The notes beneath the pieces are model-generated. The model worked only from the letters and a program-made list of their open reading frames with translations. It was not told where the DNA came from and made no database searches. A program made the position numbers and the translations under genes. Positions 1-6,619 of a DNA stretch of 30,475 bases are shown here, piece after piece. The number at the start of each line of letters is the position of its first letter. Positions within the stretch are counted from its first letter, which is position 1. Location of the stretch: contig JBDGSJ010000007.1 in the NCBI GenBank assembly GCA_042217585.1, positions 1-30,475 of the forward strand, read 5' to 3'. The DNA is from Candidatus Nanohaloarchaea archaeon. Its GTDB lineage: Archaea > Nanohalarchaeota > Nanosalinia > Nanosalinales > Nanosalinaceae.

Positions 1-405
1 AGGAAGGGCATCACTCCAGTGCTTGCGTCGGTCCTCCTGATAATACTGGCGGTGGCTGCCGCGGGTACGCTATACACTGTGGTGAACCAGATAATCGGAC
101 AGAGCAGTATAAACAACGATGTCTTCAACCAGCAGAACATGAACGTAGAGAACTGCTGGAAGAACTCCACACGGGTCAACATCGCGATAAGGAACTCCGG
201 TGGCGCGGCGATAAACGCATCAGAGATAGATCTTCTCCTCAACGCCCAGCCCGTTGACGATGTCAGGTACTACGTGACGCAGTCGATAGTTGACCCGGAG
301 GACACCTATGTCTTCAGCATAGACAGGAACGCGTACGTTCAGGGCGACAGGATAAAGCTGGTCCTCTCCGGCAACGAGATCGTCGCGGACTGCTTCTTCG
401 ACTGA
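1..405 (+). CDS. Type IV pilin/archaellin-like protein with class III signal peptide (5'-truncated by window edge)
   Basis: Frame 1 is open from base 1 and reads RKG|ITPVLASVLLIILAVAAAG, a prepilin peptidase site followed by a hydrophobic helix. The C-terminus has the Ig-like 'IAIRNSGG' pattern of archaeal pilins. Confidence 0.85.
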   Translation, partial: RKGITPVLASVLLIILAVAAAGTLYTVVNQIIGQSSINNDVFNQQNMNVENCWKNSTRVNIAIRNSGGAAINASEIDLLLNAQPVDDVRYYVTQSIVDPEDTYVFSIDRNAYVQGDRIKLVLSGNEIVADCFFD

Positions 406-1853: not shown

Positions 1854-1913
1854 AGAAACTTCAAACAACCGTATTCGGAAGATATTAAAAGAATTGGCTT
1901 CTTTTTGGGTTCC

Positions 1914-2315
1914 ATGAAACTCCCGAGCATGGAAGACGGGGAAGGTTTTGATGAAGTTCAAAAATTCGAGTGCATAATGAGAAACCTTTACGAGCTGACA
2001 TCTGTCGATATAGAGTGTTTCAGGCTTCTGCTTGAAAGCGAGGATTCCCTGACGGTCGATGAGATAGCCGAGGACATGGGAAGGGACCGTTCCACGGCAT
2101 ACAGGGCTGTTCAGAGGCTCAAGGACCGGGAGTTCGTCTCGAAGGAGAAGGTGGTCTACGACAGGGGAGGTTACTACCACATATACCAGCCACGGGAGAT
2201 AGAGACCCTCAGGGAGAAGATGGAGGACCGGCTTGACCGCCAGACATCCACTTTACAGGAGATGATAAAGGATTTCGAATCCGGTTTCAGCCAGGGCCAG
2301 GCGCGTTCAAACTAG
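1914..2315 (+). CDS. Winged-HTH transcriptional regulator (TrmB/ArsR-like archaeal family)
   Basis: LTVDEIAEDMGRDRSTAYRAVQRL helix-turn-helix and GGYYHIY wing. Start is ATG 1914 or 1929; TATA-like ATTAAAA at 1884-1890. Confidence 0.88.
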   Translation: MKLPSMEDGEGFDEVQKFECIMRNLYELTSVDIECFRLLLESEDSLTVDEIAEDMGRDRSTAYRAVQRLKDREFVSKEKVVYDRGGYYHIYQPREIETLREKMEDRLDRQTSTLQEMIKDFESGFSQGQARSN

Positions 2316-4317
2316 TCTGCGGTCCTCTTCCGGGTATCTCCGCCCCGAGTCCGGACAGGACCGTCCTTGCGGCCTCCCTGACCTTTCCTGTGTAGAAACC
2401 TGTGTCGTATCTCCGTGTATTCTCGTTCTCTAGCCGGACCCGATCCGGGCTTCGTTCCGTGTCGTCGGCCACGACGAACCCTATCTTCTCCCCGGGCCGG
2501 TACTCGAGTCCTCTCTGCTCGGCTCTTTCCAGGGCGGCGACGGTCCTCGTGTACTGGCTGTAGGCCTGTCTCTCCCTTGATATGTTCTTCCTGATGGTCA
2601 GCAGGCCGGGATCGACCCCGTTCTCCAGTTCCTCGATTTTCTGCCTCATCACCTGGATAACGTCGCCGGACCGCGGCTTCTCTCCGAGCGCCTCTATCAT
2701 CTCTCTCTGCGCGTCCCTGACGAACTCGGGGCTGGAGCTCTGCCTGGCCTCTATACCCCTGAACTTGTACTCCCCGCTCTTCTTCCTCCCGAAGTAGCGG
2801 TTCAGTGCGCCGGCCTCCGAGTCCTTCCGCGGGACGAAGCATATCCAGTCGTAACGCGCCTCGTGTTCGAGTTCCACGTCGACCCTCTCCGAGACGGTCC
2901 TGCATATCTCCTCCACGTCTACGGAGCTGTCTCTGTCTTTCACCCATGCGCTGTCGATTATCCCGTGGACCACCTCCCAGCCGTTCTCCTCGAACTCCTG
3001 CTTGGCGTCGAGCAGCATGTCCCTTGCGTGGGCGTTTATCGCCTCGTGGCACTCTATCCTGCCGAACTTGCTGTTCCTGTATCCCTGGTACCCGAAGCAT
3101 GACACCAGCACCCATTTTATCGCGTCGGAGACGGATTCCAGTTCAGGGTCGTCTCTTTCCCGGAGCTCCTGCTTGACGCGGTCCCTGTGATCGATAAGAG
3201 GTTTCAGGACCGATCTCAGGAAACCGTCTTTCTCGCAGACGCTGTAGTCGAGCCCGGGGACGGGCTGGCGGTCCGGGTGGCAGTCGCACATCAGCGTGTC
3301 GGGGCTTATGTTCTTCTCGACCATGATGTTCGGGTAGAGCGACGAGAAGTCGACCTCGAAGACGTCCCTGTGGAGACCGGTCTCGGGGCTGAATATGAAA
3401 CCTCCGCGGTCCGCCTCGTGGAGCTGGCTCAGGTCCTTGAACCTCTCCGGCTCCCACTTCTTCCACGGCACGAGGACCCCGCGGTCGGTCGCCTCCCGTA
3501 TCTCTATCGCGGTCAGGACGTTCCCTATGCTGGCCCAGCCTATCTCCTGCAGGGGCTTCCAGCTCTCCTCCACCAGGTACTTCATCCCGGGGATCCCGGT
3601 CCTGCCGAGGAAGAAGCTGTTGGAGCTGTCGAGGACCACTCTCCCGGGTACGGTGTAGCGGGCGGGGGAGTGGCCGACCCTGCCGAAGCTCTCGTAGCTG
3701 TTCTCCCCTGCCAGCTTCTCGACCCCTTCCTCCCTGCCGAGGACCTCTCCCTCCCCGGCGAGCCTTTCCTTCAGCAACGGTATCAGCCTGCTGCTGTTCA
3801 CCCGGATTACGTCGGGTTCCCGGTCGAGGCCGTCGATCACCATCTGGACCGCCTCCTCCCCGCTTCCTGCTTCCTCCCCGCCTATCTTCAGGCCGGAGAG
3901 GTCCTCGGATGCCAGTCCTTTACGGGGTATCTCTACCTCCAGTTCCTCCAGTCCCCCGGTTGAGGGAGGTGTCCCGGTCTCGAGGCAGTAACGGAACTGA
4001 GGGGTCAGGTCGACGTTGAACAGGCGGTGGCCGGTCCGGTCCATCTTCTTCAGCCTGTGGGCCACGTCTCTCAGGTCCCTGACGTCTTTCGCGTCCACCC
4101 GGAGGACCTCCTTCTCCTCTCCCCGGAGCTCAAGCTTCTTCCCGGTCAGGCAGGTGGCCCTGACCCTTCCGTCGCGGGCTATCTCCGCCCTGACCTGTTT
4201 CAGGTCCTCTCCGTGGAGGTAGATCGTCGGGTAGTACTCCTCCTCGTTCCTTCTGACCTCGCCGTCTTTGCGGCTCCATTCGACCGCCTTTCCTTCCCGG
4301 AAGTCGACCTTGAACAT
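2287..4317 (-). CDS. polB2: Family B DNA polymerase, PolB2 group
   Basis: Motif A DFSSLYPNIM, motif B KWVLVSCFGYQGY, motif C HGIIDS (YGDTDS with the first Asp replaced, typical of PolB2), RGIEAR; no clear exonuclease motifs. Confidence 0.93.
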   Translation of the reverse strand: MFKVDFREGKAVEWSRKDGEVRRNEEEYYPTIYLHGEDLKQVRAEIARDGRVRATCLTGKKLELRGEEKEVLRVDAKDVRDLRDVAHRLKKMDRTGHRLFNVDLTPQFRYCLETGTPPSTGGLEELEVEIPRKGLASEDLSGLKIGGEEAGSGEEAVQMVIDGLDREPDVIRVNSSRLIPLLKERLAGEGEVLGREEGVEKLAGENSYESFGRVGHSPARYTVPGRVVLDSSNSFFLGRTGIPGMKYLVEESWKPLQEIGWASIGNVLTAIEIREATDRGVLVPWKKWEPERFKDLSQLHEADRGGFIFSPETGLHRDVFEVDFSSLYPNIMVEKNISPDTLMCDCHPDRQPVPGLDYSVCEKDGFLRSVLKPLIDHRDRVKQELRERDDPELESVSDAIKWVLVSCFGYQGYRNSKFGRIECHEAINAHARDMLLDAKQEFEENGWEVVHGIIDSAWVKDRDSSVDVEEICRTVSERVDVELEHEARYDWICFVPRKDSEAGALNRYFGRKKSGEYKFRGIEARQSSSPEFVRDAQREMIEALGEKPRSGDVIQVMRQKIEELENGVDPGLLTIRKNISRERQAYSQYTRTVAALERAEQRGLEYRPGEKIGFVVADDTERSPDRVRLENENTRRYDTGFYTGKVREAARTVLSGLGAEIPGRGPQTSLNAPGPG

Positions 4318-4559
4318 CAGTCCATTTTTTCCTCCAGCCTGCTTATCTCCTTCTCCTGTTCGACGAGGACGGAGAAGAGAGCCATCAGGACCGGGTTCTC
4401 GTGGTTCATGTGGCTGGCGGCGTGCGCCTTCCTCTCAGCCTTGTCGAAGACCGCGTCGTAGAACTCCTGGTCCTTCTTCCTCATCGCCCTGCGGTAGGGC
4501 TTCCACTCCCTCCTCATCTTCTGCAGCGAGTTCCTGTAGGTCGGGTTAGTACGGCCCAG
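4317..4559 (-). CDS. Small helical PolB2-associated protein (arCOG07300-like), probable CTG start
   Basis: Extending the 66-aa ORF upstream gives (L/M)GRTNPTYRNSLQKMRREWKPYRRAMR. SD GGAGGTGA lies 6 nt before CTG 4559, with an in-frame TGA at 4568-4566. Its stop overlaps the polB2 ATG. Confidence 0.85.
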   Translation of the reverse strand: MGRTNPTYRNSLQKMRREWKPYRRAMRKKDQEFYDAVFDKAERKAHAASHMNHENPVLMALFSVLVEQEKEISRLEEKMD

Positions 4560-5187
4560 AGGTCTTCACCTCCGCTGAAAGCTCCCAGTAGGGGACCGTG
4601 GTCTGGACCCCTCCCGGCACTGTGTAGAACAGCGTCCGGAAACCGTCCGAGGACAGTTTCCTTCCCTGTGAGGTCCTCTTGGATTCTATCTCTTTCACGG
4701 CGGCGCTCTCGAGGACCGCGGCGTGCTCTGTTTCCCCGGTCACGGACGCGACCACCGGTATCTCCAGTTCCTCTGCCCTCTCCCTGAGCTCCCGGACCGC
4801 TTCCTCCAGCATCTCGATTCCCTCCCAGTGGCCGACCTCGTCCGCCGCGTAGAGCCGGGATGGGACCGAGAGGAACACTGCGTCGTTCTCCCCGGCCTTC
4901 CGGACCGCTCTGTGTACCAGGGTGTGGTGCTGGTGGGCGGTGAAGGCCCTTGCCACGGAGATGTTGTCTGCGCTGATCCCTGAGGCCTTCGCGGTGTTCC
5001 CGCCGTCGATCCAGAGGACCTGTTCGCTGACCGCTGCCTGCCTCTCCAGGAGTTCCCTGAAGGTCCTCGAGCCGGCTTCCCCGGCTTTCAGGATGTTCAC
5101 TCCTTTCACGGGTTCTGGAAGTTTTTTGACGGGTTTTCTGCGTTCTTCCCTCTCCTCGACCTTCATCTGTCTTGTCTTCATCTTCAC
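4546..5187 (-). CDS. Inactivated RadA/RecA-fold protein of the PolB2 operon
   Basis: VLWIDGGNT and ISVARAFTAHQHHTLV RecA-fold motifs, no intact Walker A, position ahead of the small partner and PolB2. Confidence 0.85.
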   Translation of the reverse strand: MKMKTRQMKVEEREERRKPVKKLPEPVKGVNILKAGEAGSRTFRELLERQAAVSEQVLWIDGGNTAKASGISADNISVARAFTAHQHHTLVHRAVRKAGENDAVFLSVPSRLYAADEVGHWEGIEMLEEAVRELRERAEELEIPVVASVTGETEHAAVLESAAVKEIESKRTSQGRKLSSDGFRTLFYTVPGGVQTTVPYWELSAEVKTSGPY

Positions 5188-5210
5188 GTGTTTGAAGAAC
5201 GGCTGTATCC

Positions 5211-5245
5211 TTTAACAGGCGATGGAGAGGATGCCGGAAGTTCCG
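5211..5245 (-). promoter_or_regulatory. PolB2 operon promoter: palindromic CGGAACTTCCG box plus TATA-like TTAAA
   Basis: Perfect palindrome CGGAA-N-TTCCG at 5235-5245, 19 nt upstream of TTAAA (5215-5211), which is about 24 nt from GTG 5187. Confidence 0.6.
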
Positions 5246-6256
5246 CTACGGTTCCTCGGCGGGCATGTAGGTGGTCCAGCGGCCGGAGCCCTCCGATTCC
5301 ACCAGGTTGTAGTGCTTCATCTTGTTTAGGTATTTCCTGAGCATCCTCTCGCTCTTGGGGTCCTCCATCTCCTCCCTGTACCGGTCGTACAGGTCCCTCG
5401 GCTTTATCTCCTCTTCCTCCTTTATTATCTCGTAAAGCTCCTGCTGGTGCGGGTTCAGTTTCTCGACGTTCTTCTGCTGGTTCCGGTCCTTCGCCTCGGG
5501 TATCGATTCCTGTATCAGTTCCGAGGTTATCTCGTCCATCCCCTGCTCCTCCGCCTTTCTCGCGGAGGCCCGGAGTATCCCTATCGCTATCCGTGCGTCT
5601 CCCTCTGAGGACAGCGCTATCTTCCTGATGTTGCCGCGGTCGATGGACCTGGGTTTCAGGCCGTTGTCGACCCGGTACTTCAGTATGTCCTCCAGCTGGT
5701 CGGAGGTGTACTCCTTGAACTCTATCCTCCTTGCGTCCATCAGCCGGGACCTTATCCTGTCGTCCATGTTGTAGAAGACGCTCTCCTCCGTGTTCGCGAT
5801 CATTATCAGGTTGAGGTCCGGTATCTGGTTCAGGTCGTACAGGACCTTCTCGTCCTCCAGCTGGTCCACCTCATCCAGTATCAGGACGTATGGCTGGCTG
5901 ACGCTGTTCCTCAGCCGGGAGTATAGTTCGTCGGTCGGGGTGGACTGGCGGTGGACCTGCAGGGTCTTGCCGAGCCCTTCGAGCGCCTTGTAGAGGACCT
6001 TGAACCGGTTGTAGTTCTCCCAGCAGTTCACGTAGTAGTACTTCAGGTCCAGTATCTCCTCTTCCAGCTTCTGGAGGGTGTACTGGGATATGCAGGTCTT
6101 TCCCGTCCCAGGCGGTCCGTGGATCAGGGATTTCTGCGCCTGTCCGTCCTCCGTCAGCGGCTCCAGAGTCTTCGAGAGCTCGTTGACCTCGGAGTTCCTG
6201 TGCTTGATCTCTCCCGGTATGAAGTCGTCGCGGAGGACTCTTGCGTCGACTATCAT
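5246..6256 (-). CDS. cdc6: Cdc6/Orc1 family AAA+ ATPase with C-terminal winged helix
   Basis: Walker A GPPGTGKT, YVNCW, Walker B LILDEVDQL, IMIAN, RIRSRL, GDARIAI, C-terminal wHTH. Confidence 0.96.
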   Translation of the reverse strand: MIVDARVLRDDFIPGEIKHRNSEVNELSKTLEPLTEDGQAQKSLIHGPPGTGKTCISQYTLQKLEEEILDLKYYYVNCWENYNRFKVLYKALEGLGKTLQVHRQSTPTDELYSRLRNSVSQPYVLILDEVDQLEDEKVLYDLNQIPDLNLIMIANTEESVFYNMDDRIRSRLMDARRIEFKEYTSDQLEDILKYRVDNGLKPRSIDRGNIRKIALSSEGDARIAIGILRASARKAEEQGMDEITSELIQESIPEAKDRNQQKNVEKLNPHQQELYEIIKEEEEIKPRDLYDRYREEMEDPKSERMLRKYLNKMKHYNLVESEGSGRWTTYMPAEEP

Positions 6257-6281
6257 CTGTGAAATGATTGACGGCTCTCGG

Positions 6282-6316
6282 TTTTAAAGGGAATTCTGTC
6301 GTTTCCGCTAGTTCCG
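6282..6316 (-). promoter_or_regulatory. cdc6 promoter: CGGAACTAGCGGAAAC box plus TTTAAAA
   Basis: Box at 6316-6306, TTTAAAA at 6288-6282, ATG at 6256. Confidence 0.6.
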
Positions 6317-6347
6317 TCAGGGGCAGGAAGGTCCTGCCGGCCGCAGT

Positions 6348-6506
6348 TCATCCACGGATGAGGGCGATGGATCTTCTGAAGCCGGTCAGGAACCTCCTGA
6401 AGCCTCTTTCTACTTCCCTGTCAGGGTCCCTCGGCAGTTCCGAGAGACCTCTGATCTCCTTTCGTCTGTTCATGCGGGCGGACCTCCGCCGGGTCTCCCC
6501 CGGCAT
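6348..6506 (-). CDS. Putative 52-aa Arg-rich small protein upstream of cdc6
   Basis: ATG 6506 lies about 20 nt after TTTTAAA (6532-6526); codon use resembles host genes; no family recognised. Confidence 0.4.
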   Translation of the reverse strand: MPGETRRRSARMNRRKEIRGLSELPRDPDREVERGFRRFLTGFRRSIALIRG

Positions 6507-6525
6507 CCAGTGATTGGCACCACTG

Positions 6526-6562
6526 TTTAAAATGGCGTGCGGGGTGTTTTCCGGCAGTTCCG
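6526..6562 (-). promoter_or_regulatory. Promoter with CGGAACTGCCGGAAAA box plus TTTTAAA
   Basis: Box at 6562-6552, 19 nt upstream of TTTTAAA. Confidence 0.55.
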
Positions 6563-6619
6563 CCAGCTGTTTCATGGCGCTCCGGCAGATTTATCAGGTT
6601 CAGGCCTGTTTCCTCTAAC

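Follow-up and report, generated by a model that had tools for sequence, protein, structure and literature searches.

We identified a sequence box at a near-constant distance ahead of three TATA boxes in a contig of Candidatus Nanohaloarchaea, and this shared arrangement is a real feature of the DNA. Comparison with related genomes suggests that the box is probably the site of a short Cdc6 protein encoded at the same locus, which would, when switched by damage, activate its own gene and a small translesion and repair regulon. The window (the whole stretch of 30,475 nucleotides analyzed here) is contig C36 of a 980-kb genome with 57% GC and about 90% completeness. Its proteome is acidic (D+E about 17% over 402 long frames). 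The order of 70 small genomes to which it belongs was used for comparison.

Across 80 sites in relatives the consensus of the box is a 9-bp direct repeat, CTA(C/G)CGGAA x2, whose 3' end lies about 13-16 nt before the TATA box (13-15 nt in 71 of the 80). A position matrix trained on these 80 sites, none of them from this genome, gave nine matches in the genome. Those at 6566, 6320, and 5249 ranked first, second, and sixth, and a column-reversed control matrix gave a single match of 13.8 bits. Box 1 (CTGGCGGAA-CTGCCGGAA, 6549..6566, 37.2 bits) lies in the promoter of a small ORF, ahead of the TATA box TTTTAAAC (6525..6532), and forms an invariant footprint between variable flanks in all five aligned genomes. 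Box 2 (CTGACGGAA-CTAGCGGAA, 6303..6320, 36.4 bits) belongs to the cdc6 promoter with the TATA box TTTAAAAC (6281..6288), and its equivalent precedes the cdc6 genes of 16 relatives. The cdc6 ATG stands 24 nt past this TATA box and the transcript is probably of the leaderless type. Box 3 (GTAGCGGAA-CTTCCGGCA, 5232..5249, 24.6 bits) overlaps the cdc6 stop codon and precedes the TATA box of a polymerase cassette (TGTTAAAG, 5210..5217). All three boxes and their TATA boxes, the latter assigned from sequence and matrix, are on the minus strand.

The initial annotation had quoted four copies of the box word on the minus strand, and all of them are present where it placed them. The near-constant distance that it described for three of them also stands, although its figure of 18-21 nt to the TTAAA core was off by one: the actual gaps are 17, 18, and 20 nt (6305 to 6287, 5234 to 5215, and 6551 to 6530). 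Its own pattern, with at most one mismatch, occurs six times in the window versus 2.06 expected, and 2 of 100 shuffles reach six; such a test of the annotation's own pattern is circular and the enrichment is modest. Six exact matches were found in the genome, two of them within genes. Of the two symmetries that had been proposed for the box, the direct repeat with a 9-bp period is borne out, as the T of the first unit is repeated in 74 of the 80 sites of relatives, whereas the imperfect palindrome was rejected because only 9 of the 80 fit TTCCG. The fourth copy (6442-6431) does not belong with the others: it lies within the small-ORF coding sequence, lacks a TATA box, and has no counterpart at the same position in any of the four relatives, and is therefore likely due to chance. 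A fifth exact match, overlooked by the annotation, falls within the gene for oligopeptidase F (7248-7237); as a TATA-like word is missing at the required spacing, it is likewise probably fortuitous.

The minus-strand gene order in the window is small ORF, Cdc6, iRadA, PPB2, and PolB2. The small ORF (6348..6473, minus strand) likely encodes 41 aa from the ATG at 6473, a start suggested by a GGAGG word and by the start used in G036, the closest relative; it would encode 52 aa if read from 6506. Homologues were found in four relatives. The description of the downstream genes as an inactive radA-polB2 mutagenic cassette agrees with the sequence: the three genes are co-oriented and PolB2 (2287..4317, minus strand; NF004418 750.7 bits, cut-off 692), a translesion polymerase, has lost the first Asp of DxD in its motif C, HGIIDS. 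The inactive RadA-like subunit iRadA (4546..5187, minus strand) was assigned by profile and by its place before PPB2-polB2; it has no Pfam match of its own, and its profile recovers 25 rows, including L068 (Pfam Rad51 E 0.001) and haloarchaeal cassette genes. PPB2 (4317..4517, minus strand), an arCOG07300-like small helical protein named after PMC11791011, is matched by profile between iRadA and polB2 in cassettes. In gene content, gene order, and proximity to an orc/cdc6 gene, the window cassette matches the iRadA-PPB2-PolB2 mutasome operon with neighboring orc1/cdc6 described in PMC4104785 and PMC11791011. The passages concerned in these two papers note the gene link and contain no operator, regulon, or specificity code. 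Neighbors at the locus include oligopeptidase F, a TrmB-like HTH gene (1905-2315, plus strand, convergent with polB2), and an aldo/keto reductase. G036 has a TrmB-like homologue near cdc6 and PolB2 was not found in it, which suggests that a gain or loss of the cassette separates the two genomes. At positions 1-405 (plus strand) there is an ORF whose start resembles a class III signal peptide, pilin- or archaellin-like by eye.

The window Cdc6 (336 aa, 5246..6256, minus strand) was assigned to a short, non-initiator Orc1/Cdc6 family on the basis of profiles, a structural model, and a tree. It is a member of the Orc1/Cdc6 superfamily, an AAA+ protein with intact Walker motifs (A, GPPGTGKT; B, ILDEVD) and a winged helix at its C-terminal end. 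PDB Orc1 matches span its full length and TIGR02928 scores 190.7 bits, above the cut-off. Its predicted structure (pLDDT 93.7) contains wing strands and the winged-helix helix 303-315, which carries R304, R307, and K308. The protein differs from canonical oriC initiators of the Orc1-1 type both in equivalog score (119 bits on PRK00411.1-3 versus a cut-off of 501, and under every PRK00411 cut-off) and in its lack of an ORB neighborhood. A long Cdc6 paralogue on contig C35 passes the initiator equivalog (529 versus 501 bits) and adjoins the only full ORB with a G-string in the genome, which leaves the window Cdc6 free for another role. This ORB, upstream of the long Cdc6 (G000:C35:24911, minus strand; L002), likely marks the oriC of the genome. 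The window Cdc6 is matched in 63 of the 70 genomes of the order. In a FastTree phylogeny of 40 rows, a fast method with long branches and a midpoint root, a short clade of 30 rows (support 100) holds the window Cdc6, haloarchaeal cassette Orcs, and SNJ2 Orf8, with the initiators outside; by length (about 335 aa) and by grouping with Orf8, the window protein belongs to the Orf8-like short Orc1 proteins. The tree contains no Sulfolobales sequence, and the family profile gives 117 bits on A. pernix ORC2, which we take to be the Orc1-2 orthologue, and 174 bits on Orc1-1.

The boxes might instead be mini-ORBs of a secondary replication origin, in line with the replication-related reading of Makarova et al. 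2014. The passage concerned in PMC4104785 takes the arORC2-PolB2 link as replication-related, the CGGAA half-site resembles the TGGAAAC half of the ORB of this genome, and ORBs of archaeal oriC share a GGAA core with the box and are presumably read, like it, by a winged helix from one superfamily. We consider this origin reading highly improbable. The ORB, located alongside the initiator gene on C35, is dyad-symmetric and carries a G-string, whereas the box is a direct repeat tied to a TATA box; its sites are single, scattered over contigs, and oriented with transcription at a fixed TATA distance, and have no G-string. In the opposite orientation the matrix gave three matches, two of which are one near-palindromic site on C3.

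Co-variation between box and protein points to the window Cdc6 as the binder. Among 64 cdc6 loci, the core of the box tracks residues 307/308 of the winged-helix helix, with RK accompanied by GGAA, RR by GGAC, and LR by CGAC. GGAA was found at all 25 RK loci with a repeat (15 had none, and one had an extra chance CGAC), and GGAC at all seven RR loci with a repeat (seven had none). Two LR loci carry CGAC, and two have no repeat by rule, both with ACGACA pairs by eye. The remaining loci comprise one RA (GGCA), four RN (GGAA in three, GGCA in one), and one RS (GGAA). The RR proteins form one clade (support 99) with LR nested inside. The helix changes represent few independent events, and kin are not independent. 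Lineages in which the wing is altered and RK is retained also retain GGAA, and in G058 an RN and an LR paralogue each adjoin their own box variant. The correspondence is imperfect, as the RN and RS loci show. RK genomes also tolerate CGGCA, CGGTA, and TGGAA halves, which weakens the RA case, and at two RR loci a CGGAC half is paired with a CGGAA half.

Predictions were written beforehand for 20 polB2 cassettes located away from cdc6. After exclusion of one with an N gap, one whose promoter had already been seen, and two without a prediction, all 16 readable independent cassettes carried the predicted core and no alternative core (shuffle rates 1.5-16%). The common variant accounts for fourteen of these predictions, two of the genomes (G043 and G044) are near-identical, and the G062 site was known beforehand. 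Several cassette promoters have a spacing of 17-23 nt, as read by eye. Since the box changes whenever the likely DNA-reading helix of Cdc6 changes, this Cdc6 is likely the switch. On these comparisons we consider it highly probable that the window Cdc6 binds the box, in which, judged from the alignment, R307 would read the second base and K308 the fifth.

One genome is discordant: G051 (86% complete, 7% contaminated) encodes an RR protein, yet it has CGGAA boxes at three sites on other contigs. This mismatch with its one detected Cdc6 would be expected if another transcription factor bound the box and cdc6 were just one of the targets, which we regard as quite improbable given that box variants track the helix of Cdc6, including where a single genome holds two paralogues. 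The complete genome G046 has neither a match to the window Cdc6 or PolB2 nor a box by any pattern. The adjacent TrmB-like gene was considered as the binder and rejected, as it has matches in only 31 of the 70 genomes, mostly at about 30% identity, and none at 1e-8 in many box-bearing genomes.

Next to Cdc6 itself, the closest comparison is Orf8 of SNJ2, an Orc1/Cdc6 protein of a haloarchaeal pleolipovirus. According to the passages of PMC10123103 that deal with it, induction of promoter P7 by mitomycin C requires Orf8, orf8 itself is not induced, and the binding site is stated as undetermined; a primer row in the supplement contains TTCCG. P7 holds TTCCGTTC, the reverse complement of the CGGAA half-site, four times, including one pair with a 9-bp period, and contains the sole matrix match above 11 bits in the 7.9 kb of SNJ2 examined. 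Like the window Cdc6, Orf8 has 336 aa (35% identity) and falls in the same short clade. The promoter that it activates immediately follows the orf8 gene, the position that the cassette promoter has relative to the window cdc6. Orf8 differs in being viral, in having one known target, and in not being self-induced, unlike the autoregulation proposed here; the window cdc6 is cellular, occurs in most genomes of the order, has dispersed targets, and carries a box before itself. The window neighbors also differ from the proviral module of an integrated pleolipovirus (orf4 repressor-orf7-orf8). In SNJ2 the half-sites are on the opposite strand and the Orf8 helix (R-R) departs from the residue code, so this support is by analogy.

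The initial annotation had taken Orc1-2 of Sulfolobales as the model. Orc1-2 is a proven Orc-type damage activator, but the nearest proven relative is SNJ2 Orf8. As described in the relevant passages of PMC6061795 and PMC9738581, Orc1-2 is a non-initiator Orc1/Cdc6 that acts through a promoter element (DDRE, 5'-ANTTTC-3') and activates itself, Dpo2/PolB2, and herA after damage. It differs in length (413 versus 336 aa), in the word and orientation of its element, and in the breadth of its regulon, which is global versus about seven promoters here. The consensus CTA(C/G)CGGAA x2 does not contain the DDRE on the sense strand; by eye only, the reverse complement of the 20-bp Orc1-2 consensus has CYGAAACTA, like CGGAACTA. 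The UV motif TTTCACTTTCA of Halobacterium (PMC2556686, in the passage concerned) is likewise a short direct repeat upstream of the TATA box of UV-induced genes, but with another word, a 6-bp period, and a position before radA1.

If the window Cdc6 binds the box, it quite likely activates, judging from the sequence features of these promoters and from its relatives. The main site never overlaps the TATA box, its spacing is narrow, and an A-poor BRE region follows, with 1.2 A versus 1.93 (rank test p 1e-5, with kin non-independent); BRE word tests on the box promoters did not reach significance (p 0.11 and 0.34). The two relatives that have been tested, Orc1-2 (PMC6061795) and SNJ2 Orf8 (PMC10123103), are activators, as the passages concerned report. 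A role as a LexA-like repressor, in which the same Cdc6 binds the box and its AAA+ domain over the BRE blocks TFB until damage, is unlikely. It would fit the position of the proximal half-site only 12-16 nt from the TATA box, and lexA replaces the orc gene by bacterial PolB2 operons (PMC4104785 and PMC11791011, in the passages concerned). It would also fit an additional inverted site, CGGAA-N7-9-TTCC, found directly past the TATA box and before the cdc6 start at 19 loci of one clade (L023-L030, L092-L102), which in many of them extends to the start codon. We regard this inverted site as a candidate negative-feedback site of the activator. In a further five loci (L007-L011, family f4), a 90-100 aa helical gene divergent from cdc6 shares the box-bearing promoter; it is PPB2-like by eye and was not recovered by the PPB2 profile.

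The box was next followed across the order. The strict combination of box and TATA gave 107 rows, corresponding to 84 distinct sites in 37 of the 70 genomes, versus two rows for the backwards control, and it recurs at orthologous cdc6 and cassette loci, as the initial annotation had anticipated for related genomes. The plain pattern without TATA gave 164 rows with controls common, which is too much background, and a single half-site plus TATA was at control level and uninformative in 10 genomes. The RR-type composite was found in seven genomes of the RR clade, always at the cdc6 locus, with one unrelated match. A CGGCA composite gave two unrelated matches over the 70 genomes and missed the G013 and G002 sites owing to its spacing; a relaxed pattern applied to five chosen genomes finds them, with three control rows.

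Targets were surveyed at the 80 sites outside this genome with flanking DNA, one contig-end site being omitted. The first gene past the site was cdc6 in 16 cases, iRadA in three, polB2 in one, a HerA-family gene in two, DinB in one, a PD-(D/E)XK nuclease in one, DUF763 in four, and a LAGLIDADG/HTH gene in six. Three sites precede a 190-207 aa family, three a 122-145 aa family, and 31 precede ORFs of <75 aa from several families, including eleven of one Cys-rich family. Nine sites had no resolved target; two of them lead into polB2 cassettes, two precede short ORFs, and one is intragenic. None of the 80 sites is at the promoter of a recognized housekeeping gene. In this genome, seven of the nine box-plus-TATA matches exceed 20 bits, namely the three in the window, two on C20 that precede a 27-aa ORF and another small ORF, one on C10 before a Cys-rich ORF of 67 aa, and one on C3 before a DUF763-like gene.

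Several of these targets are of interest in their own right. The DUF763-like gene (box at G000:C3:25267-25300, plus strand) lies by rtcB-like and cytidylate-kinase-like genes, named by look; as DUF763 is a box target in four relatives and has a weak HhH match, it is a candidate damage-response gene. Only cdc6 is a more frequent target than the conserved Cys-rich protein of 67-73 aa, which belongs to no Pfam family (G000:C10:6602, plus strand; L044-L046, L056, L058, L060, L061, L067, L074, L076, L079, and L300), and this family appears in the Atlas only in unnamed clusters. The 190-207 aa family had no match to iRadA by profile comparison, and the Atlas gave a Rad51-fold lead only. LAGLIDADG/HTH genes at L036, L075, L080, L082, L083, and L084 carry the box, as does a XerA-like integrase at L301 in the relaxed scan, and selfish genes may thus be coupled to the host damage response through the box.

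The initial annotation had called this system an SOS-like regulon. Repair-type genes are indeed among its predicted targets, but the breadth was overstated: in this genome radA lies inside an operon, lacks a box, and is not a direct target, which together with the target set indicates a tolerance regulon of small size rather than a complete SOS network. The palindromic box and the recA target of the bacterial SOS response are replaced here by a direct repeat and a boxless radA. Named repair genes besides cdc6 account for only 8 of the 80 sites, and uncharacterized small ORFs for about 33. It is nevertheless very likely that the signal is DNA damage, as PolB2, HerA, DinB, and nucleases are recurrent targets, to which haloarchaeal cassettes add SRAP, and the clade member SNJ2 Orf8 answers mitomycin C. 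A Cdc6 that binds and activates in response to another signal, such as growth phase, host attachment, or mobile-element induction, would agree with the absence of radA from the direct targets, with the prevalence of small ORFs, LAGLIDADG genes, or an integrase among them, and with the presence of Cdc6 homologues on 132 plasmid records and on haloviruses; we find it rather improbable.

These homologues reach 51% identity to the window Cdc6 and, among the matches listed, the plasmid-borne ones are all haloarchaeal. Cassettes of the form cdc6-(SRAP)-iRadA-PPB2-polB2 occur in Haloarcula marismortui, Halorussus, Halorubrum, Haloparvum, and Haloferax volcanii. By eye, they carry TTCCGGAA or GGAA-N4-5-CGGAA words at a similar distance before TATA-like words. 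These words are often under the matrix threshold: five of the 12 named loci (L146, L147, L148, L149, and L230), and also L227, have no match above 11 bits, and boxes there, where present, were read by eye. On pHV4 of Haloferax volcanii, HVO_RS02205 is 45% identical to the window Cdc6, and related words stand ahead of both its own promoter and that of iRadA. The cassette Cdc6 of pHV4 (L305:20262-21290) is near-identical to its counterparts in Haloarcula marismortui pNG600 and Haloparvum, which suggests recent spread, and a TnpB gene lies between PPB2 and polB2 in this cassette. The orc1 of Halobacterium NRC-1 pNRC200 (L225:7001-7927), annotated with 308 aa, ends inside the recognition helix and is wingless. 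Upstream of 4001 in L145 (Haloferax mucosum), three 9-bp units with TGGAA precede a TATA-like word, with the period of the box. A single-protein scan of wider genome contigs and an Orf8 scan of viral contigs gave no match.

The proposal that Cdc6 is an autoregulated activator and the box its operator is upheld at the level of sequence by conservation, TATA spacing, repair-type targets, co-variation with the helix, and the presence of Orf8 in the clade. Two Cdc6 monomers would sit head-to-tail on the repeat through the recognition helix of the winged helix, with the AAA+ domain facing TBP/TFB and compensating for the A-poor BRE region. Damage would switch Cdc6 on post-translationally, as has been proposed for SNJ2 Orf8 and Orc1-2, and self-activation would amplify the response, which in the 19-genome clade the inverted site past the TATA box may cap. 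The literature search, for which subscription papers were outside the scope, found no description of this operator or regulon in the lineage.

Damage tolerance without LexA outside Sulfolobales and the role of the surplus Orcs of halophiles are questions raised in passages of PMC6061795 and PMC10123103. To these, the present analysis contributes a defined putative operator with a list of its targets, a named candidate regulator, and a residue-to-base prediction. It also proposes a candidate site for SNJ2 Orf8, suggests that DUF763 and several small Cys-rich proteins may belong to the damage response, and points to HVO_RS02205 of H. volcanii as a same-clade homologue in a genetic model organism. 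In a broader reading, for and against which we see the chances as evenly balanced, the short Orc1/Cdc6 clade of nano-sized halophiles, Halobacteria plasmids, and haloviruses would serve hypersaline archaea as their counterpart of LexA, a self-amplifying damage activator with a two-residue operator code, orthogonal or cross-wired circuits, and hitch-hiking homing endonucleases and integrases. If so, hosts, symbionts, and mobile elements would run orthogonal or cross-wired damage circuits, and selfish genes would ride on the box of the host.
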